This document shows positions 3,401 to 33,568 of a stretch of DNA of 64,000 bases, in pieces. The stretch spans positions 2,575-66,574 of the forward strand of contig MPNM01000013.1 of NCBI GenBank assembly GCA_002239025.1. The letters run 5' to 3'. The stretch is from Chloroflexi bacterium bin125. Lineage in GTDB: Bacteria; Chloroflexota; Dehalococcoidia; Bin125. The notes under the pieces were generated by a model. That model saw only the letters and a program-made list of their open reading frames with translations. It ran no database searches and had not been told where the DNA came from. Within the stretch, counting starts at the first letter, position 1, and each line of letters opens with the position of its first letter. The translations under genes and the position numbers were made by a program.

Positions 3401-3460
3401 CAGGGATCCTCCGTGGCTGTACGTGGCCGAACCTTGGCGTCGGTTCACGTCTCTCAGCGG

Positions 3461-3532
3461 CTTGGTCTAGCCGTTATGCCTGTGGTTGGGTGCTCGCTTA
3501 CTTTGACCTGTCATGGCCTCTTGGTCTAGCCG
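3461..3532. repeat. Two exact 13-bp direct repeats CTTGGTCTAGCCG (3461-3473 and 3520-3532) in the aceB-aceA spacer
   Basis: Read directly from the sequence. The copies are 59 bp apart. Confidence 0.7.
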
Positions 3533-3538
3533 AATGGC

Positions 3539-5134
3539 CTAGTCGAGGTATTCGTAGGCGGGCAGCGTGAGGAACTCAGGGAACTCCTCGGTCAGTACGA
3601 GTTGATCGAGAATCTCGACCGCGTCGCCAAAGCGGGATTCTTCCGAGCCGCCCAGCGAGGCCAGTTCCTCGTCGCGCAGCGTTTCGTACAGGTCCGACGT
3701 GATCGAGCGGCCGTCGTCGAGCTCGGCATTGTGTTGAATCCACTGCCAGAGCTGTCCACGGGAGATCTCCGCCGTCGCTGCGTCTTCCATGAGGTTATTG
3801 ATCGCAGCCGCGCCAACTCCGTTGAGCCAGCTATTGATGTACTGCAAGGCAACAGAGATGTTCAGTCGCAGTCCAGCTTCCGAAACCGAACCGCCGGACT
3901 GATCGAGCGAAACGAGGTCGCTGGCGGCAACGCTCACGTCCTCGCGCATCCGCTCGCGTTGGTTGCGGGCGCCGTTGAGGTTGGTTTCGAAGATGTCACG
4001 GGCAACGTTGACGAGGTCGGGATGCGCGACCCAGGTGCCGTCGAAGCCATCGGTCGACTCGCGCTCCTTGTCGGCGCGCACACCGGTCAGAGCGATCTCG
4101 TTGATCTCAGGGTCGCGCCGCGAGGGAATGAATGCGGCCATGCCGCCCATCGCGTGTGCGCCGCGCTTGTGGCAGGTGCGCACGAGGAGTTCGGTGTAGG
4201 CGCGCATGAATGGCGTCGTCATGGTCACCTGGACGCGGTCGGGCAGGGTGAAGGTGGGCTGCGACTTGAAGCGCTTGACCGCCGAGAAGATGTAGTCCCA
4301 GCGACCGGCATTGAGTCCGGCGGAGTGGTTGCGCAGCTCGTAGAGGATTTCTTCCATCTCGAATGCCGCCGGCAGCGTCTCGATCAGCACCGTCGCGCGG
4401 ATACTGCCCTGGGGCACGCCAAGGTCGTCCTGGGCCTTGACGAAGGCGTCATTCCAGAGGCGCGCTTCCAGGTGTGATTCCAGTTTGGGCAGATAGAAGT
4501 AGGGGCCGGTCCCACGAGCGACGCGCTCGGCGGCGTTGTGGAACATGTACATGCCGAAGTCGAACAGTGAGGCGGCGACCGGAGCGCCGTCGACCAGCAT
4601 GTGCTTCTCGTCCAAGTGCCAGCCCCGCGGCCGAATCAACAGCGTGGCGATCTGCTCGTTGAGCGTTCGCACCGAGCCATCGGGATTCTCGAATGTGATT
4701 TCCCGGCGAACGGCGTCGCGGGCGTTGATCTGCCCATTGACGACGTTGTCCCAGGTCGGCGAGAGCGAGTCCTCGAAGTCGGCCATGAATGCATCGGCGC
4801 CCGAGTTGAGTGCGCCGATCATCATCTTGCGGTCCACCGGACCGGTGATTTCGGCCCAGCGCTGTTGCAGGTCTTCGGGTGTCGGAGCGACCTGCCAGGA
4901 ACCGAAGCGGACTTCCTCGGTGTCAGAGAGGAAGTCGGGCAGCGCGCCCTGGTCAAACTCGGCCTGGCGCACCATGCGGCGCCCCAGCAGTTCCTGCCGG
5001 CGGGCGTTGAACTCTCGGTGCAAACCCGCGACAAATGCCAACGCGTCCTCGGTCAGAATCGCGTCGAAGCCGTCCTGTATGGCTCCGACGACTTCAACGC
5101 CGTCTGGAGTACTGATTTCGGTGGTCTGGGTCAT
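3539..5134 (-). CDS. aceB: Malate synthase A
   Basis: 531 aa with malate synthase A-like sequence throughout (for example ...[20 protein letters not shown]...). It lies immediately upstream of aceA. Confidence 0.93.
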
Positions 5135-5420
5135 CGGAGTGCTCAGTCCCTGCTCGCGGTCTCTCTGCCGCCTGGTGGTTATGAGTGGTTATGACAGGCT
5201 TCGCACGACAAACGTGGGAGCCGTTGGTGAGTATCCTTTGTGAACGTTCGATTAAGGTACGGATGATGCGGGTATCGTCAATAGTTAGCGGTATTCACGA
5301 TAGATGATTTTGATATCGCAAGTAATCCAGTCGATAGAAATGGCCTCCAGCCCACAATCGCGCCTCGCCATTGCCAGACGAGTATCCTGAGAGGCCACCA
5401 TATGCCGAGGAGCGCGACCG

Positions 5421-6032
5421 ATGACGACCAATGACTCCCAGCCGACCAAGTCAACGGTTGGCAACTTCAACGTCTCCGGGATCAACCATCTGGCGCTCGT
5501 CTGTCACGACATGCAGCGCACGGTCGACTTCTACAGCGGCGTGCTGGGCTTCCCGCTGGTCAAGACGATCGAGCTGCCCGGCGACATGGGACAGCACTTC
5601 TTTTTCGACATCGGCAACGGCGACTGCCTGGCCTTCTTCAACTTCCCCAACGCGCCCGAGCCGGCGCCGGGCATTGCGTCTCCCGATCCCAATACGTTCT
5701 TCGATCCGTCGGCGGAGCTGGTGACCGCGGTGGCGTCGATGAACCACGTCGCCTTCAACGTCGACGCGGACGAGATCGAGGCGCTGCGGGACAAACTGAT
5801 TGACGCCGGCGTGCGTTGTACGCCAATTCTGAACCACGACGATTCGGCGCGCGGCATCGCTCGCGAGATTCATCCCGGCGTCTTCGTGCGCTCCGTCTAC
5901 TTCTACGATCCCGACGGGATCATGCTGGAATTCGCCGCCTGGACCCGTGCGATGCGGCCCGACGATGTGCGACACGCACCGGGCAAAGCGGCGGACAAGA
6001 CGGCGGACCGGGTCGCCGCGGTCGCAGACTGA
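5421..6032 (+). CDS. VOC-family (glyoxalase/bleomycin-resistance/dioxygenase) protein
   Basis: GINHLALVCHDMQRTVDFYSGVLGFPLV ... MNHVAFNV ... YFYDPDGIMLEF, which are the paired beta-alpha-beta-beta-beta VOC motifs. Confidence 0.8.
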   Translation: MTTNDSQPTKSTVGNFNVSGINHLALVCHDMQRTVDFYSGVLGFPLVKTIELPGDMGQHFFFDIGNGDCLAFFNFPNAPEPAPGIASPDPNTFFDPSAELVTAVASMNHVAFNVDADEIEALRDKLIDAGVRCTPILNHDDSARGIAREIHPGVFVRSVYFYDPDGIMLEFAAWTRAMRPDDVRHAPGKAADKTADRVAAVAD

Positions 6033-6250: not shown

Positions 6251-7864
<1,614 letters not shown>

Positions 7865-7868
7865 ATCA

Positions 7869-7903
7869 CCATCCGCCCGGACTCGTTGAGTCCGGGCGGA
7901 TGG
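7869..7903 (+). terminator. 15-bp-stem hairpin immediately after the sigma factor stop
   Basis: ccatccgcccggact-cgttg-agtccgggcggatgg. There is no U-tract. Confidence 0.55.
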
Positions 7904-7924
7904 CCGCTAAGCTGATCTGGGTAA

Positions 7925-7999
7925 GCGGGGGTAGCTCAGGGGTAGAGCTCCTGCCTTCCAAGCAGGTGGCCGCGGGTTCGAATCCCGTCCCCCGCTCCA
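7925..7999 (+). tRNA. tRNA-Gly (anticodon TCC), CCA encoded
   Basis: Cloverleaf folded by hand. Acceptor gcggggg/cccccgc, anticodon stem cctgc/gcagg with loop cTTCCaa, T-loop ttcgaat. Confidence 0.9.
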
Positions 8000-8025
8000 C
8001 TCGGCTCGCCAGTTTCGCATCACAT

Positions 8026-8106
8026 GTAGGGGCGTCCCTTGTGGGCGCCCTTCCCTTTTGGATCCAGCACCATCGCCAAGCGGGCGCCCACAAGGGGCGC
8101 CCCTAC
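8026..8106. repeat. Palindromic element, GTAGGGGCG-N-CCCTTGTGG-N-CGCCC family, copy 1
   Basis: 25-nt inverted arms with 1 mismatch flank a 31-nt spacer. A related copy is at 61477-61568. Confidence 0.8.
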
Positions 8107-8118
8107 GCAGATCCATCG

Positions 8119-8571
8119 CTATTGCAGCGGCAGAAGAATTTCCGTATGCCACTTCGATTGATCCGGCTCTGCCTCAGGATCGGTGATGTAGCGCTCGATT
8201 GGACCACTAATCGGCGCGCGACCGAGCTTCTCGACGAAGGGCCAGATTGACTCGTGCGTTTGCGCGAGCTGGTCATATGGGCCGTAGTGGTCGGCCTTGA
8301 CGGCGTCGCAGGCTGGCATCTCCAGCAGATCCAGCGGTTTCGCGAGCTCGACATCGTCGCCAATCTCGATGCCTGCTGAAAGCGACATCTGATTTGCGTC
8401 CATCGAGTGGTAGACGGCGATCACGTGACCCATCTCAGTCACACCCTGCTCGGTCAAGGCGGCGTAAACCGCCGGGAAGATGCGCGCAAACGTGGCGGGC
8501 AGCTCCTCGGTCGACGCGTTGGCGTGCATCACAGCAGCTCGTCTGGCAGTTAGCTGAACAACCTCGGGCAT
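8119..8571 (-). CDS. GyrI-like small-molecule-binding domain protein
   Basis: About 150 aa: ...VIAVYHSMD...LSAGIEIG...DHYGPYDQL...PIERYITDPEAEPDQSKWHTEILLPL, the typical GyrI-like/SOUL fold pattern. ATG at 8571. Confidence 0.65.
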   Translation of the reverse strand: MPEVVQLTARRAAVMHANASTEELPATFARIFPAVYAALTEQGVTEMGHVIAVYHSMDANQMSLSAGIEIGDDVELAKPLDLLEMPACDAVKADHYGPYDQLAQTHESIWPFVEKLGRAPISGPIERYITDPEAEPDQSKWHTEILLPLQ

Positions 8572-8608
8572 GTCGATCCTCCACTTGCGACTCCACGTTT
8601 GGAGCAGA

Positions 8609-9067
8609 CTACGACAGCGGCAGCCAGATCTCGGTGTGCCACTTGGATTGATCCGGTTCCGCGTCGGGCAACGTGAGATAGCGCTCAACCACCATGCCGC
8701 TCGGAGTGCGACCTACCGAGTCCAGTTCCGCCTCCAACTGAGCCTGTGTCTGTCGGAAGTCGGCAAACAGGTACGGTCCGAAGTGATCAAGCATTCCGGC
8801 CTCGCAACCGCCCAGCTCAAGCAGCGCCAACGGTTCCCGAGGCGAGAAATCGCCCTGAAACTCGATCCCCGCCGACAACACCAACTCTTCCTCCCCGATT
8901 GAGTGATAGACCGCGACCACTTCTCCCAGATCCTGTCCACCTTGCTCCTGCAGAGCGTCCCAGACTGCCGGATACATCTCGGCAAAGGCCGCCACCAGAT
9001 CCTCTCGAGTCGTAACCGCATGAAACACGGCAGCGCGGCGCGAAGGCATCCACTGGATCATCGACAC
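8609..9067 (-). CDS. GyrI-like small-molecule-binding domain protein (tandem paralog)
   Basis: Collinear with the 8119-8571 product (RRAAV.H...VVAVYHS...SAGIEF...ERYLTLPDAEPDQSKWHTEIWLPL). An alternative ATG at 9061 gives an ATGA overlap with the upstream stop. Confidence 0.65.
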   Translation of the reverse strand: MSMIQWMPSRRAAVFHAVTTREDLVAAFAEMYPAVWDALQEQGGQDLGEVVAVYHSIGEEELVLSAGIEFQGDFSPREPLALLELGGCEAGMLDHFGPYLFADFRQTQAQLEAELDSVGRTPSGMVVERYLTLPDAEPDQSKWHTEIWLPLS

Positions 9068-9621
9068 TTGACCACTCGCAGTTCGGTCACAATCAGATCT
9101 ACCGGCTCGTCATGGTGCGCTCGCGGGATCGTATCGACCAATTGCATTTCATATACCAGGGCTATCCGCAGGCTCTCGCTCTGTGAGAGAAATCGGTCGT
9201 AGTAGCCGCCGCCCATTCCCAGCCGATGTCCGTCAGCGCTGAATGCAATACCAGGGACGACCACAATGTCCGCCGAAGCTGGGTCTGCAGGAGGGCACAA
9301 CTCGGGATCCGGCTCTCGTAGGCCAAACGCCGAGTCGGTCAACTGGGACAGCTCAGTCACCTCTCGATGGTCCAACTGTCCGTGGGGGCGGATACGAGGA
9401 CAGATGACTCGCTTGTGATCGCGCAACGCACCTTCAATCAAGCGCTCCGTTTGAACTTCACCGGGCAGCGCGCCGACGTAGCAATGTACGATTTCGGTCT
9501 GTTGCCACTGCTCCAGAGCGTTCACCCGAGCACAGATCGCCGTCGACCAACCGTCAACAAGTTCAAGTGGCAATGACGCCCGAGATGCTCGGAACGTCCG
9601 TCGCAATTCGGACTTGGACAT
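9058..9621 (-). CDS. 5-formyltetrahydrofolate cyclo-ligase
   Basis: 187 aa. The ...VVVPGIAFSADGHRLGMGGGYYDRFL motif is characteristic of the MTHFS family. Confidence 0.85.
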   Translation of the reverse strand: MSKSELRRTFRASRASLPLELVDGWSTAICARVNALEQWQQTEIVHCYVGALPGEVQTERLIEGALRDHKRVICPRIRPHGQLDHREVTELSQLTDSAFGLREPDPELCPPADPASADIVVVPGIAFSADGHRLGMGGGYYDRFLSQSESLRIALVYEMQLVDTIPRAHHDEPVDLIVTELRVVKCR

Positions 9622-9635
9622 GGCGCAGACGGATT

Positions 9636-10481
9636 CTATGGCAGTCCCGCTCCGCCGACTTCAACATCGAAGGATCGAATGCGTCCCAGTCGCGGATCAC
9701 CCGGCTGCGGATTCGATGTCGGCGCTTCAAGCGCGAACAGCGTCTTGCGTTCCTCGCCGCCTAGCATGCAGGCGTAGACGCCCATGTCCGGCACCTCAAT
9801 CCGTTCCAGGACTTCGCCCCCCTTGGCGACACGAGCCAGTGCCCCAGGATTCGTCGGTACCGCGACCCAGATCGCTCCGTCAGCGTCGAGACAGATGCCA
9901 TCAGGCGGGAAACCTAAATCCGCCCAGACTCGTTGGTTCGATAGTGAGCCATCAGACTCGACATCGAAGGCGGTCAAGCGCTGACCCCAGCTCTCGCCGA
10001 CGATTAGCGTTCCTCCATCGGGCGTGATCACCGTGCCATTGGGAAACTGGATGCCGTCGGCCACGATGGACGAATCACCATCGGTCGTGACCTTGACAAT
10101 CGTTGTCGCACGAGGTGCTGAGCCATCGGTGAGGTCAAAGCCAAAGTTGCCGATGTACGCGTTGCCGGCAGCGTCAACCACCATGTCGTTGCAGTGGTAG
10201 GGCGCTTTATCGGAGATGTCCGCAACCTCGTACAACCCGTCGGGATCCAGACGCAACAGCTTGCGGTCGGTCATCGAGACGATCAGCAAACGTCCATCAG
10301 GAAGGAATCCAAGCCCGGAGGGCTGATTTGGCACTTCGACAATCGTCTCGCGTTCACCGTCGGGGGTAACAGCAACAACCTCATGCGCATGCATGTCGGA
10401 GAACCAGAGCCGGCCCTCAAACCATCGCGGGCCTTCGGGAAACACCAGCTCATCCAGGACCAACCGAGGGTCTCGTGACAT
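9636..10481 (-). CDS. SMP-30/gluconolactonase/LRE-family beta-propeller protein
   Basis: FPEGPRWFEGRLWFSDM..., NDMVVDAAGNAYIGNFGF, FPNGTVITPDGGTL. ATG at 10481. Confidence 0.8.
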   Translation of the reverse strand: MSRDPRLVLDELVFPEGPRWFEGRLWFSDMHAHEVVAVTPDGERETIVEVPNQPSGLGFLPDGRLLIVSMTDRKLLRLDPDGLYEVADISDKAPYHCNDMVVDAAGNAYIGNFGFDLTDGSAPRATTIVKVTTDGDSSIVADGIQFPNGTVITPDGGTLIVGESWGQRLTAFDVESDGSLSNQRVWADLGFPPDGICLDADGAIWVAVPTNPGALARVAKGGEVLERIEVPDMGVYACMLGGEERKTLFALEAPTSNPQPGDPRLGRIRSFDVEVGGAGLP

Positions 10482-25089: not shown

Positions 25090-26031
25090 TTACGCCGACA
25101 GCAACCGATCTGTCGGCTCCGAGTACATCGCTGCGATCGAGTTGATGTCCCAGTCATGAATGACGCTGAGGGCTCCGGTGGCTGAGGAGTGCTTGTAGAG
25201 CTGGTGCAGCGTCCAGTAATGCAGATCGTCGTCGCTACGGCCATAGCTCTCCAACGCTTCTCGCATCACTCCCCGGGCACCTTCCGACAGGTCGAGATTG
25301 CCGAGTAAGTCCTCCGCCGCCAGACGTCCCCAGTCCGACAGCGGATCGCCCAGATGCGTCTGTTCCCAATCGAGCACCGCGGCGATGCCTGGCGAATCCC
25401 CTACGCCGTGAGTCGGGCTGAGGATGAAGTTACCGAAGTTCACGTCTCCGTGGACGAGCATCGGTTCCGGACTGTCAGGGACGCGGCCGTTCAGGCCTTC
25501 GCGCAAGCGCTTGATGTGCGGCAGATCGTAGACGCCGAATGCTTGCAGCCGCTCTGCGATCTGTGAACGCTCGTGCATTGCCGGTCCAGTCGCGGGAGGC
25601 AGCGGTAGCCAGTCGAGATCTGCTTCTCGCCAGTTGAGCGTGTGAATCTGGCGCAGCGTCTGGCAGTAGACGCGAGCGTCCTCTGCCTGCGCTTGACGTT
25701 TCAACATCACTTCGCCATCCACCCACTGGACAACCATGCAGCCTCGGCCGACTTCGCCAGACGGAGCGAGGTCGCCGGAAACACCCAGCACTGCCGGGAC
25801 AGGTATGTCCGCGTCGGCCAGGCAACGCAGTAACCGCGCCTCGGAAGGCAGATCGTACGGAGGCAGGATTCCCCGCCGCGGTTCCATTCTGAGCACGACT
25901 GGAACGGCATCGATCCGTTCGACCCGCCAGCTCAGGTGCGACTTGCCCTTGAGACGCTCAACGTTGGTGACGACGCCATCCACGCCGCACGCCGCCAGTG
26001 CTTCCCGAACATGGTTAGTCACGTCGTTCAC
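25090..26031 (-). CDS. Phosphotransferase-family (APH-like) protein, paralog of 23529-24464
   Basis: 313 aa with LVHGDVNFGNFIL and VLDWEQTHLGDPLSDW. GTG start. Confidence 0.8.
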   Translation of the reverse strand: MNDVTNHVREALAACGVDGVVTNVERLKGKSHLSWRVERIDAVPVVLRMEPRRGILPPYDLPSEARLLRCLADADIPVPAVLGVSGDLAPSGEVGRGCMVVQWVDGEVMLKRQAQAEDARVYCQTLRQIHTLNWREADLDWLPLPPATGPAMHERSQIAERLQAFGVYDLPHIKRLREGLNGRVPDSPEPMLVHGDVNFGNFILSPTHGVGDSPGIAAVLDWEQTHLGDPLSDWGRLAAEDLLGNLDLSEGARGVMREALESYGRSDDDLHYWTLHQLYKHSSATGALSVIHDWDINSIAAMYSEPTDRLLSA

Positions 26032-26051
26032 AGCGAGCGGAATCTATCCCG

Positions 26052-26093
26052 CTCCCCCTCGCAGGGGGAGCTGCCGAAGGCTGAGGGGGTCCC
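26052..26093. repeat. CTCCCCC..GGGGGAG hairpin plus CTGCCGAAGGCTGAGGGGGTCCC tail, copy 2
   Basis: ctccccc-tcgca-gggggag-ctgccgaaggctgagggggtccc. Compare 20260-20302. Confidence 0.75.
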
Positions 26094-26155
26094 TTGCCCT
26101 GTCTTGGTCGCCCAACCGGGCAACTCACGTGTCCAACACCGATTGTGAACAGGCT

Positions 26156-26272
26156 TTAGCCCTGGCGCTGCTTGTTGCGCGGGTTCCTTTTGTTGATGAT
26201 GTAGACGCGTCCCTTGCGGCGGACGATTTGATCGTCGCGGGAACGCTTCTTGACCGAGGCTCTGACCTTCAT
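26156..26272 (-). CDS. rpmJ: 50S ribosomal protein L36, Cys-less (zinc-independent, C-minus type)
   Basis: Not in the ORF track because it is under 60 aa. Manual translation: [38 protein letters not shown] (38 aa). GGAG lies 6 nt upstream of the ATG. Confidence 0.88.
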
Positions 26273-26406
26273 GAGGGCTCCGATTGCTGATACTGACCGA
26301 AATCGTACCACGAGGCCCGCTCATCCAGGCCTGTCAGCTCTGTTGCAAACTCGTCATCGCTGGTCGCTATCATAAGATCGATGCCTCCGGAAAACTACAT
26401 CCGCGT

Positions 26407-27648
26407 ATGCCGTTGAGCAACGTGATCGCTGACGAATCAGCAGTTCGGCTGCTTGAGCGACACGAAGATGTCGCAGCGCTCGCTGATCGCATTCGCGCCG
26501 TCGGCATCATGGGACTTGACACCGAGTTCGTCTCGGAACGCACCTATCAACCCCAGCTCGCTCTGCTCCAGGTGGCAACTCCGGACGAAATCTGCCTGAT
26601 CGATCCACTGTCTGATCGCATCCAGGAAGCTCCAGATCAGCCCATCTGGGATCTGATGGCCGATCCGAGCGTCCGCACGATTGTTCACGCGCATGATCAG
26701 GAGGCGCAGTTTTGCCTGCAGCGAACCGGCAAATCGCCGGGCGACCTGTTCGATGTGCAGCTCGCAGCAGCGTTTAGCGGTCACTATTTCCCCATCGCCT
26801 ACGACAAGCTCGTCGGGCGTGAGCTGCGCCGTAGCGTCGGACCCTCGCAATCGCGAACCAACTGGCTGCAGCGACCCCTGACGGAAGCCCAATGCCGCTA
26901 TGCCGCCGACGACGTGCGCTGGCTGTTCCGTTTGCACGATCGCTTCGTCGAGCGCATGTCGCACGACCCGGCTCAGGAGCGGTTGTCCTGGCTGCGCGAA
27001 GAGACGAATGCGCGACTGAATCGGCTCGGCCGTCGAGAGACCGACCGCTGGCGTCGACTGTCGGGAGCAAACAAACTGTCGCCGCGTTCATTGGCCGCCT
27101 TGCGCGAGTTGTCGAGCTGGCGAGAGCAAGTCGCCAGCCGCCGCAACGTACCGTTCCGCAGGATTGCCTCCGACGGTCTGCTTGTCGCCGTCGCCGCCAG
27201 CCGGCCCGAATCGCGCGGTGAGCTGTCAAGCGTGCGCGGAGTTGGGCAGCTCAAACAGAACTATCACCAGGACGTACTCGATGCGGTCGAGACCGCGCTG
27301 GCAGTTCCTGAAGATGCGCTGCCCAGCCCTGTCAGCCGCCACAACCGCGGTAAGCCGTCGCGCATGGTACTGCTCTTCCTGGAGTCCGTGCTCGCCGCTG
27401 CCTGCGCCCGACACCAGATCGACTCCGAGCTCGTGGGCAGCAGCTCGCAGTTACGCGCGCTGGTCTCCTGGAACGAAAACGGTCGTCCATCTGACGACAT
27501 GCCGCCGCTGCTCGTCGGCTGGCGAGCCGAGGTCTGCGGACAGCCGCTGCTCGACGCGCTGGACGGCCGGATCAGCCTGAGCATCAGCGATCCCCTCTCA
27601 GCCAATCCCCTCGCCGTCGCCGGTCTGGGAGTGCCTACGGGCGGCTAA
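26407..27648 (+). CDS. rnd: Ribonuclease D (DEDDy 3'-5' exonuclease plus HRDC)
   Basis: GLDTEFVSERTYQPQLALLQVAT (Exo I), ...HAHDQEAQF..., YAADDVRWL (Exo III). An HRDC-like region follows. ATG at 26407. Confidence 0.85.
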   Translation: MPLSNVIADESAVRLLERHEDVAALADRIRAVGIMGLDTEFVSERTYQPQLALLQVATPDEICLIDPLSDRIQEAPDQPIWDLMADPSVRTIVHAHDQEAQFCLQRTGKSPGDLFDVQLAAAFSGHYFPIAYDKLVGRELRRSVGPSQSRTNWLQRPLTEAQCRYAADDVRWLFRLHDRFVERMSHDPAQERLSWLREETNARLNRLGRRETDRWRRLSGANKLSPRSLAALRELSSWREQVASRRNVPFRRIASDGLLVAVAASRPESRGELSSVRGVGQLKQNYHQDVLDAVETALAVPEDALPSPVSRHNRGKPSRMVLLFLESVLAAACARHQIDSELVGSSSQLRALVSWNENGRPSDDMPPLLVGWRAEVCGQPLLDALDGRISLSISDPLSANPLAVAGLGVPTGG

Positions 27649-27728
27649 CGAGGGACTGCAAACTGCAATCGGCTGGTCAGTCGGCAGGTGACCCAAGCCC
27701 CCACATCCCGCTAAGATGACTGAGGCGA

Positions 27729-27804
27729 TGCCCGGTAGCTCAATTGGTAGAGCGGGCGGCTGTTAACCGCTAGGTTGCGGGTTCAAGTCCTGCCCGGGCA
27801 GCCA
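27729..27804 (+). tRNA. tRNA-Asn (anticodon GTT), CCA encoded
   Basis: Acceptor tgcccgg/ccgggca, anticodon loop cuGUUaa, T-loop ttcaagt. Confidence 0.9.
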
Positions 27805-27826
27805 TCATCGCCCAATCCAACCCACC

Positions 27827-28033
27827 ATGCACAGGTACCAGATCACCATCTACTGGAGCGACGAGGACGACGTGTTCGTGGCAGACATCCCGGAGTTGCC
27901 CGGGTGCATGGCTCATGGGGACTCGCACGAGGAGGCGCTCGCACAGGCGCAGGCCGCGATCGGTTACTGGCTCGAAGGTGCCGAAAGGATTGACCGCGAG
28001 ATTCCCAATCCTACGCCGAACTCAGGCAGGTGA
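27827..28033 (+). CDS. hicB: HicB-family antitoxin-like protein (UPF0150 domain only), with no adjacent hicA
   Basis: 68 aa. YQITIYWSDEDDVFVADIPELPGCMAHGDSHEEALAQAQAAIGYWLE is the canonical HicB N-domain pattern. Confidence 0.8.
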   Translation: MHRYQITIYWSDEDDVFVADIPELPGCMAHGDSHEEALAQAQAAIGYWLEGAERIDREIPNPTPNSGR

Positions 28034-28034
28034 A

Positions 28035-28108
28035 TGGCTGCCGAGCCAGGATTCGAACCTGAACTGAGGGATCCAAAGTCCCTAGTGCTACCGTTACACT
28101 ACTCGGCA
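28035..28108 (-). tRNA. tRNA-Gln (anticodon TTG), CCA encoded
   Basis: The reverse complement folds as a cloverleaf: acceptor tgccgag/ctcggca, anticodon stem aggga/tccct, loop cuUUGga. Confidence 0.9.
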
Positions 28109-28113
28109 ATCTC

Positions 28114-28202
28114 TGGTACCGAGGGCCGGACTCGAACCGGCACGGGCTTTACGCCCAATGGTTTTTGAGACCATCGCGTCTACCATTCCGCCACCTCGGC
28201 GC
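28114..28202 (-). tRNA. tRNA-Leu (anticodon CAA), long variable arm, CCA encoded
   Basis: Reverse complement gcgccgaggtggcggaatggtagacgcgatggtCTCAAaaaccat + variable arm tgggcgtaaagcccgt + T-arm. 89 nt. Confidence 0.9.
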
Positions 28203-28225
28203 AGATCCTTAGGGTATCAGCATGT

Positions 28226-30070
28226 TCAGATTTCGAATATGCGCAACAGGTCATCTCTTGACAACTTCCGCTCCACGCCTTCCACGCTGAGTGAGTCCAC
28301 CACGTCGAGAAACAGGTCCCGCTTAGAGTCCAGCAGACTCTGAATCCGCTCCTCCACTGTGTCAACTGCCACAAGGGTCTGTTCAAACACCGCACGCTGC
28401 TGTCCGATCCGATGAGCGCGTGCTGTCGCTTGGTTCTGCGTCGCCGGATTCCACCAGGAGTCAAAGTGCACCACGTGATTCGCGCGAAAGAGATCAATTC
28501 CAGTTCCACCTGCCTTCACCTGCAGGACCAACACGTTCAGTGAGTCACCGGCCTGAAACTCTTCCTTCAGGCGGTCACGATCTCGTTGTCGCGTTGAACC
28601 AGTGAACTGCGCCGACCCGTACGACGATAGCGCGGCCTCAACCATATCGATAGCACCAAGGAACTGGCTGAAAACCAGCACCTTTTCACCTGCCTCACGA
28701 GCATGTTGCACATACTCCTGCAGCCAATCTAGTTTCGCGCTCGATCCCGGAGTGCCGTTACAAATTTGCTTTAGCTTGGTGATATGCGCACGTAGCGTGA
28801 ACTCTGTTTGTTCTCCTTGCAGAATCTCCTTGACCGTCGTACCGAAGGCCTGATCATACTCGCGACGTTCAATGTCGGAAAGATCAATGGGTACGATTTC
28901 GGCTTTGACCTCTGGCAACTCTTGAAGCACCTGTGATTTCAGACGTCGGAGCATCAGAGGCTTCGCAGCACGCCTGATCGCTTGGGGAGTGTGCGAATAG
29001 CCCCTGATCGAGTCCGGATCGCAGAATCGCAAGATACTAGCTAGTTCTTCAACCTGGTTTTCAAGCGGCGTTCCTGTCAACGCCCACTTGAGTTTGGCGC
29101 GTTGCCTCATTGCGGAGCGATTGCGCTGTGTGTTTCGGTTCTTTATGTGTTGCGCCTCATCCACAATCAGAACGTCCACATCCGGTGGAAGCCCCTCTTC
29201 TGAGTCGTTCGCGAATCGCTGATAACCAACCACCCCAACGCGGAGGTCATAGTCGCCTAGTTCACGCCATAACCGTCGCCGAAGGCCTAACGGCTCTTGT
29301 AGAGACGCCACAGGAAGCTCCGGAGCCCAGAGGTTGAAGTGCCTAACCCAAGATGTCACCACTGCCGGTGGTGCCAACACCAGTGCGCTGCGAGCGATGC
29401 CCCGGCGAAACAGAACCCGCAGTGCAACCACCGCTTGTACGGTCTTCCCCAAACCCATGTCATCCGCCAGAAGGGCCCCTTTTCCACTCCTCAATAGGAA
29501 ATCGACACCATCGCCTTGGAATTCATATAGAGGATGTGGCAAACCCAAATCTGAATGCCGATTCGCGAGTCCCTCGGTCAGTGGTGGTTCGAGCACAAAC
29601 AGGAGCGATCTCAGCAGTCGTCGCAAAGCTGCGTCCTCGTCTGGTCCATTGCTTGACCGCTGTCGTATGCTCTCCTCTTGACTTTGACGCGCTAGCCTCG
29701 GTTCGCCCCGCTCGAAAATGACTCCGGATACCTTTGCGGGTTTCACCCACGCCACCTCGACAGCACCTACAAACGACGTTGTGGTCAGTTCCACTGACTC
29801 TGCCACTGGCCGAGTTAGAGACGTTGCCTCATCAGCACTTATGTAGGGAAGTTGCGGATGCAGCGAAGTGATTGGTCTAGTCCGGGGTACGGGAAAAGGA
29901 CCGAACTCAATCGCTTCAATACTGAGACTTAACTTCGCCGATGTGCTTATGACCTCGACCGTAGCTTTTGCTGGCGTCCGAAGCGGGACGCCGGCTGTCC
30001 GCTTCCGCAAACGTGGCGCTACCACTCGTATGAAGAGGCTGCGGGCCGATCTGTTAGCTGAAGCGCGCAT
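28226..30070 (-). CDS. SNF2-family (SF2) DNA-dependent ATPase/helicase with an uncharacterised ~190-aa N-terminal region
   Basis: LADDMGLGKTVQ (motif I), VLIVDEAQHIKN (motif II), WALTGTPLEN (motif III), GGTGIDLFRANHVVHFDSWWNPATQNQATARAHRIGQ (motifs V-VI). Local GC is lower. Confidence 0.88.
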   Translation of the reverse strand: MRASANRSARSLFIRVVAPRLRKRTAGVPLRTPAKATVEVISTSAKLSLSIEAIEFGPFPVPRTRPITSLHPQLPYISADEATSLTRPVAESVELTTTSFVGAVEVAWVKPAKVSGVIFERGEPRLARQSQEESIRQRSSNGPDEDAALRRLLRSLLFVLEPPLTEGLANRHSDLGLPHPLYEFQGDGVDFLLRSGKGALLADDMGLGKTVQAVVALRVLFRRGIARSALVLAPPAVVTSWVRHFNLWAPELPVASLQEPLGLRRRLWRELGDYDLRVGVVGYQRFANDSEEGLPPDVDVLIVDEAQHIKNRNTQRNRSAMRQRAKLKWALTGTPLENQVEELASILRFCDPDSIRGYSHTPQAIRRAAKPLMLRRLKSQVLQELPEVKAEIVPIDLSDIERREYDQAFGTTVKEILQGEQTEFTLRAHITKLKQICNGTPGSSAKLDWLQEYVQHAREAGEKVLVFSQFLGAIDMVEAALSSYGSAQFTGSTRQRDRDRLKEEFQAGDSLNVLVLQVKAGGTGIDLFRANHVVHFDSWWNPATQNQATARAHRIGQQRAVFEQTLVAVDTVEERIQSLLDSKRDLFLDVVDSLSVEGVERKLSRDDLLRIFEI

Positions 30071-30587
30071 CTTCTTCCGCGACGATGTTATGGACCTTCA
30101 TGATTCGTGAAAAGACGTCGTAAGGATCGAATTGCGTACGTGCTCGCTCCAATAGCGCGACGATCTCCTCACGATCTCTCGCCGGGATCGACGAATATTG
30201 AATAACGCTAAGCGCTGGTTGATTAGCTGAAGATGATAACGTCTGCACGTCAAACTCGTCGATAAGGGCCACCGACTCTTGGTGGGTCAAATGAGCAGTT
30301 GCATATGCGCCGTCACGATCTAGCGCCATCAGGTCATTGACGAAGACTACTCGCGGCTTGTACTCAAGCTGCGACATCAGAGGAGAAGCGATCAACTCGG
30401 CTACAACGTGTTCGTTTAGTGTCGATCCATAGGCTGCACGGACAAGTGCATTGGGCCGGACCCAAGCAGCGATTCGATACTCAAGTGGCTTGCCTGACTC
30501 ATCAGTCACCATTAGGCCGCCTCGATACTCGGACAAACCTATGTCGCCCGCGAAGATGCCCAAGAAGCCGATCCGGTGCCCGACCAT
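30054..30587 (-). CDS. Uncharacterised 177-aa protein, translationally coupled to the SNF2 ATPase
   Basis: ATG 30587 has AGGAG 9 nt upstream. Its stop (30054) lies 17 nt inside the SNF2 ORF. It has no TM or signal sequence and no motif I can assign. This is the lowest-GC stretch I counted (about 45% in one 60-nt line). Confidence 0.6.
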   Translation of the reverse strand: MVGHRIGFLGIFAGDIGLSEYRGGLMVTDESGKPLEYRIAAWVRPNALVRAAYGSTLNEHVVAELIASPLMSQLEYKPRVVFVNDLMALDRDGAYATAHLTHQESVALIDEFDVQTLSSSANQPALSVIQYSSIPARDREEIVALLERARTQFDPYDVFSRIMKVHNIVAEEDARFS

Positions 30588-30616
30588 GCGCTCTTGCTCC
30601 TAGAACCGGTCTCAGT

Positions 30617-31897
30617 CTACCCCTTGCCCAACTTACGGAATCGCACCAGACGGATCCGGCGGTTGTCCGACTCGACCACGGTCCAGCGATAGCCGTAGAG
30701 GTCGATTGACTCGTCGGTCTGTGGGATGCGGCGGAAGCGCTGCAGCAGCATGCCGGCGACCGTTTCCGCTTCCTCGTCCGAGAAGTCAACTTCCAGTTCC
30801 GCGCCGAGATCGGTCAAGCCGCGGCGACCCTCGACGAACTGCTCGCCGGCGATCCGCACGGGCACCGGCTCCGAGCCTTCGCGCGTTTCACTGCGGATGT
30901 TGCCCACCACGAGCTCGAGGATGTCTTCCAGGGTGACCAGGCCTGAGGTTGCGCCGAACTCGTCGATCAGCAGCATCAGGTGATGCCCAGTCGTCTGCAT
31001 CTGTGTCAGCACTCGCTGCACCGAGGCCCGCTCCGATTCGAACGGGGCCTCGCGCATGACGTCGCGCACATGCCGCTCGCGATTGCCCTGGCCCAACTGG
31101 GCCAGCACGTCGGAGCCGTGCAAGTAGCCGATGTAGTGGTCCTCGGTCCCCGAGCGGACCGGCAGACGCAGGAACCCGGCCGCGCCAAAGGCCCGGCCCG
31201 CCTCTTCCAGCGTCGCGCCTGAGTCGATCGAGGCGATCTGCGGCCGACCGGTCATAATCCTTCGGACCTGCGTCTCGCCCAGGCGCAGCGCGCCGAGCAG
31301 GACGGACGTGTCTTGCACTTTCAGCTCGCCCTCTTCGCGCGACTGCACGATTGCCGTGCGCAGCTCGCCCATCGAGAGCGCGGTGCTGGCTTCTTCCTGT
31401 CCACCGACCACTCTGAGCCAGATGCGCGAGGTCCAGTCCAGCGCAACCACCGCCGGACGGGTCAATCGTGCCCACCAGGTGAGCGGGATTGAGTAGTACC
31501 GAGCCACAGCCAGGTTGTGGTGCAGCGCCACCGACTTGGGGCCGATCTCGCCGAAGATCACGAGCAGAATGGTCACGGCAACCGTGGCCACTACAATGCT
31601 GAGTCCTCCGCTGCTGCCGAAGAGTTCCTGCGCAATCACCGCGCCCACGGTTGCTGCGCCCGTGTTGACGAGATTGTTGCCAACCAGGATCGAAGCGAGC
31701 AGGCGGCGCGGCTCCTGCAGCAACGCGGCTGCGCGGTCGGCGCCGGGCAATCGACGCTGACGCTCATGCTCAAGCCTCACGCCCTCAATTGAGAGGTACG
31801 AGGTCTCGGCGCTGGAAAAAAATGCCGATAGCGCCAGCAGCGCCGCCAGTAGGACGAAATACTCAATCACGGACCGACTCCCTGTCCCGTCCGACAC
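30617..31897 (-). CDS. CNNM/CorC-type hemolysin-family protein (DUF21 TM domain, CBS pair, CorC_HlyC)
   Basis: 426 aa with N-terminal TM helices ending in ...GEIGPKS, then a CBS-pair region, then a C-terminal transporter-associated domain. Confidence 0.82.
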   Translation of the reverse strand: MSDGTGSRSVIEYFVLLAALLALSAFFSSAETSYLSIEGVRLEHERQRRLPGADRAAALLQEPRRLLASILVGNNLVNTGAATVGAVIAQELFGSSGGLSIVVATVAVTILLVIFGEIGPKSVALHHNLAVARYYSIPLTWWARLTRPAVVALDWTSRIWLRVVGGQEEASTALSMGELRTAIVQSREEGELKVQDTSVLLGALRLGETQVRRIMTGRPQIASIDSGATLEEAGRAFGAAGFLRLPVRSGTEDHYIGYLHGSDVLAQLGQGNRERHVRDVMREAPFESERASVQRVLTQMQTTGHHLMLLIDEFGATSGLVTLEDILELVVGNIRSETREGSEPVPVRIAGEQFVEGRRGLTDLGAELEVDFSDEEAETVAGMLLQRFRRIPQTDESIDLYGYRWTVVESDNRRIRLVRFRKLGKG

Positions 31898-32195
31898 ATA
31901 GCGGACGGAAGCTGTCCCCTGTTCGAGTCAGGGGCTGTGAAACCCTACGCTACTCTTCGGACATGGTGACACCGACAGAAACCCTCAGCGTTGTAGACGC
32001 AGCCGACATCCTGAATGTCGATTCCGATGCGCTGCTAGATGAAATTCGCAGCGTCGCAGCCGCAGCCGAGCGACCCTCGGCGCGTGATTGAACGATTCCC
32101 GGACCGGCGCTCAGTGTGAGCGTCTTTGTCGGCGGGAAGCTCGCAGTCTGCGAACGGGACAAGCCCGGCTCGGACGATTGGCGCGTCAGGCTCCC

Positions 32196-32870
32196 ATGAG
32201 CGCAGCCAACAGCGCGGCAACGGCGCGGTACCGTTCGGTGATCTTCGATCTCGACGGAACACTCGCCGACACCGAGCCGCTGGTCATCGGTTGCATGCTT
32301 GAGACGATCAACGCGCACGGCCATCCCGTCGACAAGGAGTTGCTGCTCAAGTACATCGGACCACCGCTGCCGGTGATGCTCCACAACATGCTCGGGCTCA
32401 ACGCCGAACAGGCGCAGCCGATCTACATGGACTACCTGAGGCGCTACGAGGACACCTACATGCCGCGCACGCGTCCCTTGCCCGGCGCAGAGGCGCTACT
32501 CGACGCGCTCTGCGAGGCGGATGTTCCAATGGCCGTGGTCACGAACAAGCGTGAGGATGCGGGTCGCAAGACGGTCGAGCTGCTCGGCTGGACCGATCGC
32601 TTCGAAACAATCATCGGCGCCGACACCGCCAGCGACCCAAAACCGCACCCTGCACCACTCATGCACGCTCTGGACATTCTCAATGGAGAACCAGAGACAT
32701 CGGCAATGGTGGGAGACACGGAATCGGACATGGGAGCGGGAAAGAACGCCAAATTCGCCGGCGTGATCGGCATTGTCGGAGTGCGGGACGACGAATACCT
32801 ACGCCGATACGGAGCCACTCACACGGCCGAAGACCTCGCGGCTGTTCAAGGTTTGCTGTTCACTGGCTGA
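32196..32870 (+). CDS. HAD-superfamily hydrolase (phosphoglycolate phosphatase-like)
   Basis: VIFDLDGTLADTE (motif I), VVTNK (II), MVGDTESDMGAG (IV). ATG at 32196. Confidence 0.82.
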   Translation: MSAANSAATARYRSVIFDLDGTLADTEPLVIGCMLETINAHGHPVDKELLLKYIGPPLPVMLHNMLGLNAEQAQPIYMDYLRRYEDTYMPRTRPLPGAEALLDALCEADVPMAVVTNKREDAGRKTVELLGWTDRFETIIGADTASDPKPHPAPLMHALDILNGEPETSAMVGDTESDMGAGKNAKFAGVIGIVGVRDDEYLRRYGATHTAEDLAAVQGLLFTG

Positions 32871-33327
32871 TCTGAAGCGTTGGCGGGCCCATGGCTATAT
32901 CAACGTTCTCTGAGACTCTGGTGAAGTCTCCATCGTAGGTCGCGAAGTAGCGGGCCTCCGCGTGGACCGCTGAAGCCAAATGGATGGCATCAAGAACCGT
33001 CAACCGCTCACGGTCATTCGACGCAACCCGAACGAACTGCCTGGCTCGCAGGGCAACTGTTTCGTCGAGCTGCACCAGACCGATGAGGCGTTCGTTCAGC
33101 AAAAGCGAGTTGATTCGCCTGTCGAGCTCTTCGGGACTGAGTCTCGAATGCGTCTGTCGCAAGTACACAACTTCGGCCAACGAGACGATCGAGGTGATGG
33201 CTCGCAATGTCCCGCTTGACGAGGCTGTCAGAACGCGCTCTATAGTGTCAGCTCGACCGGGTTCGTTGTTGAACCAAGCGATGAACACACCGGCATCAAA
33301 GTAGACAGAATCAACGCCGGGTGGCAT
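32860..33327 (-). CDS. vapC: PIN-domain protein (VapC-like toxin)
   Basis: VYFDAGVFIAW..., ...SLAEV..., VLDAIHLASAV..., FATYDGDF supply the four acidic PIN positions. Lower GC. Confidence 0.75.
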   Translation of the reverse strand: MPPGVDSVYFDAGVFIAWFNNEPGRADTIERVLTASSSGTLRAITSIVSLAEVVYLRQTHSRLSPEELDRRINSLLLNERLIGLVQLDETVALRARQFVRVASNDRERLTVLDAIHLASAVHAEARYFATYDGDFTRVSENVDIAMGPPTLQISQ

Positions 33328-33568
33328 CGCGCATCTGTCGCACATTCACGTGCGCTGGCGGGTCATCCTCGCTCCAATCGAAGATTCCCCTCGTCGCGCG
33401 CCAGTCACCGGAGTCGGACGGTTCGTCATCGTTCTCAAAACCACTCTTGCCGTGAGGCTCGGCAAGAGTGGCGATTCCTGCGATAGGCAGCAGGGACTGG
33501 CAATGTGGGCATCGCGCCTCGGACCCTGATGAACGCTCAGTCACGACTCGGGCACTCTTCTCCCTCAA
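33311..33568 (-). CDS. Small ORF upstream of and overlapping the PIN gene; putative atypical antitoxin
   Basis: It overlaps the PIN start by 17 nt. There is no ATG start (TTG 33568 or a downstream GTG). It contains CPHC and an acidic tract and has no recognisable family. Confidence 0.35.
   Translation of the reverse strand: MREKSARVVTERSSGSEARCPHCQSLLPIAGIATLAEPHGKSGFENDDEPSDSGDWRATRGIFDWSEDDPPAHVNVRQMRDATRR

Follow-up and report, generated by a model that had tools for sequence, protein, structure and literature searches.

Two overlapping genes, one for a small protein without an assignable domain and one for a SNF2-family ATPase, raise the question of whether they form a single unit, how they came to their place in the chromosome and what they might do there. 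They lie on the minus strand at positions 28226 to 30587 of a 64,000-nucleotide (nt) stretch of contig MPNM01000013.1 from Chloroflexi bacterium bin125 (Dehalococcoidia); "the window" denotes that whole stretch. An earlier reading of the letters alone, called here the original prediction, had taken the pair for a horizontally acquired, two-component defence module in a low-GC islet beside a tRNA cluster. Our analysis finds that the two genes are a conserved, co-evolving unit with a large number of relatives. The reading we favour is that the pair is one mobile module of a widespread unnamed family, most likely with a role in surveillance against foreign or aberrant DNA (defence or conflict), and we give this reading a probability of roughly one half. 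The argument draws on the following features of the window.

30054..30587, minus strand: small partner gene, 177 amino acids (aa), from the open reading frame (ORF) call and a match to the family profile
28226..30070, minus strand: SNF2-family ATPase gene, 614 aa, without a nuclease domain, from the ORF call and Pfam
29639..30070, minus strand: coding region of SNF2 residues 1-144, predicted to be disordered from the AlphaFold predicted local distance difference test (pLDDT)
30054..30070, minus strand: overlap of the small gene's stop with the SNF2 start, 17 nt, from the junction sequence
30588..30616, minus strand: spacer between the CNNM gene and the small gene, 29 nt, holding AGGAG, from the sequence
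28484..30627, minus strand: segment without detectable DNA similarity to the related locus L013, the replaced or hyper-divergent cassette, from blastn breakpoints and protein identities

A paired gene family and its predicted folds

The small protein is not an orphan; it is a member of a large, so far unnamed family. An exhaustive HMMER profile search recovers 1565 clusters of relatives (at 50% identity) at E<=1e-3, 1264 of which also pass E<=1e-10, and the members are nearly all 170-200 aa long. A word-based search reaches just ~15 close clusters, 3 of them in Dehalococcoidia metagenome-assembled genomes (MAGs). Where the source annotation names these relatives at all, it is only as 'hypothetical protein', and searches of Pfam, NCBIfam, PADLOC, PHROGs and the PDB sequences turn up nothing credible for 41 sampled members. 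Among the residues conserved across the family are F8, G23, T28, D29, P34, E36, Q49, Y53, G54, D154, E157, F159 and R161.

The family is tied to SNF2 motors. A locus was counted as a member of the pair family when a match to the small-protein profile was followed by a same-strand SNF2 gene starting within ~40 nt of its stop; the window pair shows a profile match of E 4e-62 and an overlap of 17 nt. Metagenomic loci came from a scan with a tighter subset alignment of the small-protein family, which returned 80 loci. A same-strand SNF2 ORF directly follows the small gene in 58 of these 80, with a gap typically of -4 to +20 nt, so that the co-occurrence expected of a two-component module is borne out in the neighborhoods of its homologs. 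Among the other 22 loci, 20 end no more than 1.35 kb past the small gene, too short for the motor motifs, and only L030 and L031 lack SNF2 despite at least 2 kb of downstream sequence. In close relatives (L007, L009, L011, L013 and L017) the SNF2 gene overlaps the small gene by 17-41 nt, and SNF2 follows the small gene in every related Dehalococcoidia locus examined. As expected of a co-evolving unit, the pairwise identities of small protein and motor are correlated (r 0.93; Spearman 0.55, p 6e-4). The two genes are therefore a conserved, co-evolving unit.

The two loci without a motor hold small-family genes at 4971-5543 (L030) and 3443-4015 (L031); downstream of the former lie genes for a 151-aa protein of no assigned kind, a Rce1-like CAAX protease and a cyclase-TPR protein. 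In a Dehalococcoidia MAG (L016), the small gene (7995-8438) is C-terminally truncated to 147 aa beside an intact SNF2 gene (589 aa), which may represent decay of one partner.

Within the window, the junction of the two genes reads ATGCGCGCTTCAGCTAA, with the stop of the small gene 17 nt inside the SNF2 ORF as originally described, and the purine-rich GGAAGAAG precedes the overlap. This arrangement suggests translational coupling. An AGGAG lies 9 nt 5' of the small gene's ATG, again as first noted.

The partner motors come in several forms. A C-terminal Mrr_cat nuclease (PD-(D/E)xK) is present in 23 of the 38 unique complete partner motors; one more has a C-terminal extension of another kind, and 14 (about 37%) are nuclease-less, like that of the window. 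The nuclease-bearing motors match PADLOC ZorD profiles only from position ~440 onward. More distant nuclease-less motors of ~570-600 aa (P0022, P0074, P0044 and P0107) stand at the end of a conserved operon of five genes that recurs in four unrelated genomic contexts:

L099:1317-6791, five-gene operon copy
L100:1436-6755, five-gene operon copy
L101:2360-7782, five-gene operon copy
L102:2461-7704, five-gene operon copy

The operon runs from a 267-aa protein of no assigned function through two BrxC_BrxD (PF10923) ATPases and a relative of the small family to the SNF2 motor. The product of its small gene, 163-179 aa long, is picked up by the small-protein profile at E 1e-10 and 8e-8. Class III adenylate cyclases recur as weak matches of the 267-aa protein (best E 0.022). 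The window contains none of the operon's additional genes. In a different variation on the theme, a gene for a Uma2-family endonuclease (PD-(D/E)xK-like) lies directly upstream of the pair in L011 and also in L001, L007 and L012.

What kind of protein is the small partner? AlphaFold, given the family alignment, predicts its structure with confidence (pLDDT 88.6; predicted template-modelling score, pTM, 0.87) and places in succession three strands, a long helix, four strands and two helices. In a Foldseek search of the PDB, all 21 matches at E<=1e-3 are endonuclease V or PIWI/Argonaute proteins (probability 0.95-1.0), the best at E 3e-5 with probability 1.0, and they include the catalytically inactive short prokaryotic Argonautes (pAgos) of the SPARSA and SPARDA systems. 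The C-terminal endonuclease half of UvrC follows at E 1.1e-3, and a viral library returns the same fold relatives, more weakly. At the level of fold only, the small protein is predicted to belong to the endonuclease V / PIWI / UvrC-C branch of the RNase H-like fold.

Proteins of the RNase H-like fold place their acidic catalytic residues on strand 1, at the start of helix 1 and at the end of strand 4. The corresponding positions of the family, read from the order of secondary structure rather than from a superposition, are F8/L9/G10, Q49 and V83/N84. Because the canonical acidic positions are apparently not conserved, the small protein is probably non-catalytic, with a binding role. The conserved D29, E36, D154 and E157 lie outside these positions, by the same secondary-structure order, and could form a different site.

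The second protein was described from the start as a complete SNF2 motor, and Pfam confirms this over aa 187-556 (SNF2-rel_dom aa 187-438, Helicase_C aa 446-556). The motor spans aa ~180-614, and its Walker A (GLGKT), DEAQ and motif VI are intact. Its best match among PDB sequences is the SNF2 core of Sulfolobus SSO1653 (1z63, E 3.9e-54), and its structural matches are generic SNF2 motors, the ZorD structure 8qy7 among them. In an AlphaFold model of the full-length protein, residues ~180-614 are predicted with confidence, and the pLDDT lies under 50 over residues 1-144 except at two short strands.

The N-terminal part deserves separate treatment. Residues 1-180 have no match in Pfam, NCBIfam or PADLOC, and the original prediction was right that neither this region nor the 177-aa protein carries an assignable domain. 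It went too far in picturing an orphan N-terminal region: a hidden folded domain in residues 1-144 is rejected, as this part is mostly predicted disorder. Within it are two short predicted strands, at aa 36-43 and 112-119, which are also the sole conserved N-terminal motifs in an alignment of close relatives; across the broad family, an N-terminal alignment likewise shows short tail motifs within an otherwise variable stretch of 196-335 aa. On these models the SNF2 N-terminus is most readily taken for a flexible tail that carries docking motifs, plausibly a candidate docking site for the small protein. The public gene call (P0003) starts the motor 148 codons downstream and yields 466 aa; the 614-aa form is favored because its overlapping start and its N-terminal motifs are conserved in relatives.

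Composition and exchange of the cassette

The pair stands out from its surroundings in composition. Its G+C content is 53.2% in the small gene and 55.5% in the SNF2 gene, compared with a mean of 62.7% (standard deviation, sd, 1.6) over 42 long window ORFs. At third codon positions (GC3) the values are 0.573 and 0.566, against 0.745 (sd 0.061) in the same ORFs, a dip of ~3 sd. The compositional break that had been estimated from hand counts is thus real, at 53-55.5% for the pair and about 0.57 in GC3, and the estimate's lower bound of 45% was too low. Wherever flanks could be measured, namely in the window, L013, L009 and L011, the GC3 of the pair is well below that of its neighbors.

A comparison with related genomes shows where this cassette begins and ends. 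L013 shares the order of the window locus (CNNM / tRNA-Leu / tRNA-Gln / HicB / RNase D). Proteins encoded in the flanks are 75-99% identical between the two (85-96% for the nearest genes), for instance 92% for CNNM, 87% for HicB, 91% for RNase D and 96% for enoyl-CoA hydratase, whereas the small protein is only 36% and the motor 46% identical. At the DNA level (blastn), a similarity of 81-85% ends at the CNNM stop, at window position 30627, and does not restart until ~260 nt before the end of the motor gene, at 28484. A more distant genome, L017, with flanks 46-82% identical, holds yet another version of the pair at the same site. The L013 motor is nearer to that of L017 (54%) than to that of the window (46%), and the closest copies of the window motor are non-syntenic (48-53%). 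Because the motor identities are incongruent with those of the flanks, the comparison indicates cassette replacement at the CNNM/tRNA-Leu locus rather than just fast vertical evolution.

Other copies bear on mobility more directly. L009 and L013 lie on one 3.5-Mb circular contig, which thus carries two copies of the pair in one genome, and the L009 pair is identical to that of L014, a Dehalococcoidia MAG. In L011, Uma2 and the pair (6708-9791) form a three-gene insert within the rpsB-tsf-pyrH-frr cluster; the three run in the opposite direction and separate frr from pyrH, two normally adjacent genes. Low GC3 in four genomes, a divergent pair between conserved flanks and the L011 insertion all agree with the original prediction of a horizontally acquired two-gene module.

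Neither the window nor L011 shows flanking direct or inverted insertion repeats, and no integrase or transposase is seen at the window locus; exchange by homologous recombination in the flanks is for this reason the likeliest route. Integration targeted to the tRNA was considered and rejected, since the cassette lies 5' of tRNA-Leu and an integrase is absent.

The immediate neighborhood contains genes for CNNM, HAD, PIN, HicB and RNase D as well as tRNAs. The gap between the CNNM stop (30617) and the small-gene start (30587) is the 29 nt first reported; tRNA-Leu, whose 5' end ARAGORN and Rfam place at 28200, lies 25 nt from the SNF2 stop (28226) and not 23, a trivial difference. As the 29-nt spacer holds neither a promoter-like nor a terminator-like site, the pair may be transcribed by read-through from CNNM. 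The nearby HicB-like gene is confirmed at 27827-28033 on the plus strand, without a HicA partner, and is kept with the flank (87% identical in L013, 58% in L017). Proximity to tRNAs and HicB is therefore a property of the conserved flank and not, as had been proposed, of the module, other copies of which sit in unrelated contexts. Five independent assemblies agree at this locus without a difference (100% identity across as much as 10 kb), and no non-tRNA RNA families were found in 26000-32500.

Two further observations concern the edges of the locus. A sigma-70-like promoter match (TTGTCA, 17 nt, CATATT) lies on the minus strand at window 28236-28264, inside the SNF2 3' end and ~36 nt upstream of tRNA-Leu, and in L013 the SNF2 ORF overlaps tRNA-Leu by 21 nt; given both, the end of the motor gene and the tRNA promoter may constrain each other. 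About 2 kb from the pair, between the conserved genes for enoyl-CoA hydratase and a HAD hydrolase, there is a second variable slot. It holds a PIN-domain gene and an 85-aa CxxC ORF in the window (32860-33568), an amidohydrolase gene and a 143-aa ORF in L013 (3135-5218), and DUF6978 and DUF1828 genes in L017 (2709-3646).

Possible functions of the pair

In the reading we favor, the small protein would bind the flexible N-terminal tail of the motor and act as a nucleic-acid-sensing or regulatory subunit, probably non-catalytic, in a role analogous to that of the inactive PIWI domains of short Argonautes or of the small partner in Hachiman. The ATP-driven motor, a putative double-stranded-DNA translocase of the SNF2 type, would then act on the recognized DNA. 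In most relatives the fused Mrr-type nuclease would cut; the nuclease-less form of the window might need nothing beyond translocation or displacement, or its motor might act jointly with the small protein or with an unlinked nuclease. The Mrr fusions and the BrxC/BrxD linkage seen in relatives point toward conflict systems. A bolder version of this idea, which we advance tentatively and hold to be possible though doubtful, is that the family constitutes a widespread undescribed immune system. It would couple a miniature inactive PIWI/endonuclease V-like sensor to a SNF2 translocase and combine them with an interchangeable effector (a fused Mrr, a separate Uma2, BrxC/BrxD or none), and it would have been overlooked because it occurs mainly in uncultured soil, sediment and Chloroflexota lineages.

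A number of results weigh against surveillance or defence. The Foldseek template-modelling (TM) scores of the small protein are modest, at 0.3-0.5, and we know of no named homolog of it. Its residue 49 is Val in the window copy and Gln in 147 of 150 relatives, which could reflect functional drift. The window motor has no Mrr_cat hit in Pfam, no nuclease gene adjoining the window pair was found, and Uma2 adjoins the pair in one sub-lineage only. The neighborhoods of 21 broad-family loci consist mostly of metabolic and housekeeping genes: about 10 of 130 neighboring ORFs match PADLOC at E<=1e-10, a count without a control rate, the matches being SspH, TIR-like, mad8 and some candidate PDC models, and by Pfam two neighboring ORFs carry CHAT and two carry PIN. 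The proposed defence islet thus gave way to a picture without a clear defence island. The family was not found in 72,556 plasmids, 50,697 phage records or the IMG/VR viral contigs at the sensitivity used. Furthermore, the pair occupies the same chromosomal locus in three related genomes. Vertical inheritance beside the CNNM gene had been named at the outset as a finding that would count against a mobile module; the synteny is there, and vertical descent is not, given the incongruent divergence. A defence role is plausible but unproven.

Several of these observations would also fit a housekeeping module, in which an endonuclease V- or RNase H-like factor finds lesions, R-loops or stalled complexes and a SNF2 translocase clears or remodels them, like RapA, Mfd or CSB-type proteins. 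In its favor are the shared locus in three Dehalococcoidia genomes, the searches of plasmids and phages that did not find the pair, and the mostly ordinary neighbors; endonuclease V and UvrC, which the small protein resembles in predicted fold, both act in repair, and about 37% of partner motors lack a nuclease. Such a role is harder to reconcile with a patchy distribution and two copies in one genome (L009 and L013), with a divergence that is extreme and phylogenetically incongruent relative to the flanks, with a GC3 persistently under that of the host and with a copy that interrupts the pyrH-frr cluster. An Mrr fusion is found in most relatives, distant ones are linked to BrxC/BrxD ATPases and the RapA model score is far below its cutoff. 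Housekeeping is, on balance, an unlikely explanation.

The same nuclease-less state could also be a sign of loss, with the window copy a reduced or decaying remnant of a larger system (a nuclease-bearing two-gene form or the five-gene BrxC/BrxD form) that is kept without its ancestral job. The missing Mrr domain, the missing additional operon genes, the replacement of the near-invariant Gln49 by Val in the window copy only and the truncated 147-aa small gene in the related L016 would all suit a remnant. Decay is, however, hard to see in a copy that has two intact ORFs, a full set of ATPase motifs, a preserved overlap and ribosome-binding site, and the same sequence in each of five independent assemblies; and nuclease-less partners are a sizeable class (14 of 38), not isolated accidents. 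We consider a remnant quite improbable. Lower still in our estimate, and very improbable, is a selfish or addiction-type cassette, maintained through harm to the cells from which it is lost. A compact, overlapping two-gene operon of variable location and low GC3, at a locus that also holds toxin-antitoxin-like genes (HicB-like and PIN), has the outward look of one. Yet neither protein shows similarity to toxin or antitoxin families, an ATPase of 600-950 aa is atypical of such modules, HicB and the tRNAs lie in the conserved flank, outside the cassette, and flanking repeats and a recombinase are lacking.

Should the favored reading of the pair as a DNA-surveillance or immune module be correct, it would add a large family (>1500 sequence clusters) that Pfam, NCBIfam, PADLOC and PHROGs all lack. 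It would also bring together SNF2-nuclease motors such as ZorD, BrxC/BrxD-type ATPases and RNase H/PIWI-like sensor folds, which have so far been studied separately. The nuclease-less forms raise the question of how a bare SNF2 motor and a probably non-catalytic small partner act on DNA. To our knowledge, almost no defence systems have been studied experimentally in Dehalococcoidia, and the locus offers what appears to be a clean natural case of cassette replacement at a fixed chromosomal site in this class.

Comparison with known systems

Among characterized SNF2 motors in defence, ZorD of type I Zorya is the nearest in architecture. It belongs to the same motor family, and most partner motors share with it the combination of SNF2 and a C-terminal Mrr_cat. 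The window motor scores 122.8 bits against the NCBIfam ZorD model NF041790 (cutoff 1500), over the motor only; the ~440 N-terminal profile positions specific to ZorD are absent from the family motors, and the Mrr-like nuclease that ZorD carries is lacking in the window motor. Zorya has no counterpart of the small RNase H-like partner, and none of the genes around the window pair matches zorA, zorB or zorC. For DISARM, two DrmD models give 88.9 bits (cutoff 610) and 55.8 bits (cutoff 950), and no DrmA, DrmB (DUF1998) or DrmC neighbors are found around the window pair. The DpdE model gives 57.3 bits (cutoff 500), with PADLOC DpdE hits covering only the motor end of the profile. With scores far below the cutoffs and matches to the motor only, membership in the ZorD, DrmD and DpdE families is rejected.

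RapA/HepA, the RNA polymerase-recycling factor, has in common with the window protein that it is a bacterial SNF2-family ATPase. The RapA model matches residues 199-319 only and scores 48.8 bits where its cutoff is 576; a comparison of the window motor with PDB sequences gives no RapA match at E<=1e-20. A RapA-like housekeeping helicase is rejected on the model score, as the original prediction had held.

For the small protein, the closest comparisons are structural. Endonuclease V and the C-terminal endonuclease of UvrC cover nearly all of it (E 2e-4 to 1e-3, TM-score by query, TMq, 0.42-0.52), although the small protein has no sequence match to PDB chains. A second comparison is with short pAgo systems (SPARTA, SPARSA and SPARDA) and PIWI-RE; the former pair a non-catalytic PIWI sensor with a separate effector. 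The predicted fold of the small protein matches PIWI domains, among them those of catalytically inactive short pAgos, with TM-scores of only 0.3-0.45; at 177 aa it has no room for a MID or PAZ domain, and sequence similarity is undetectable. The TIR, SIR2 and DREN effectors of those systems are not present, and the neighboring gene encodes a SNF2 motor, not an APAZ effector.

Links to BREX come from distant relatives, in which the pair ends the five-gene operon with two BrxC_BrxD genes. BrxD and its helicase are tightly linked as a dyad in type 2 BREX (PMC12839542). Core BREX genes are absent from the locus: no methyltransferase or PglZ accompanies the pair, and a BrxC-type ATPase, PglX and PglZ are all missing from the window. 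Both the BREX-related systems of that study and Hma (PMC11232893) were compared with the pair and are different from it, and full-text literature searches found no description of the pair.

Hachiman offers a parallel in gene arrangement. Its small HamA nuclease and HamB helicase form a sensor-effector complex (PMC12278908). It likewise consists of two genes, with a small protein encoded directly upstream of a superfamily 2 (SF2) helicase; the likeness is architectural only, as HamB is not a SNF2 protein and HamA is a PD-(D/E)xK nuclease (DUF1837), and no PADLOC model, that for HamA included, finds a match in the 41 small proteins sampled from the family. Taken together, the closest known kinds are the SNF2-nuclease motors of defence systems, such as ZorD, and the systems that join a small partner to a helicase, such as Hachiman; the module described here stands beside both and belongs to neither.

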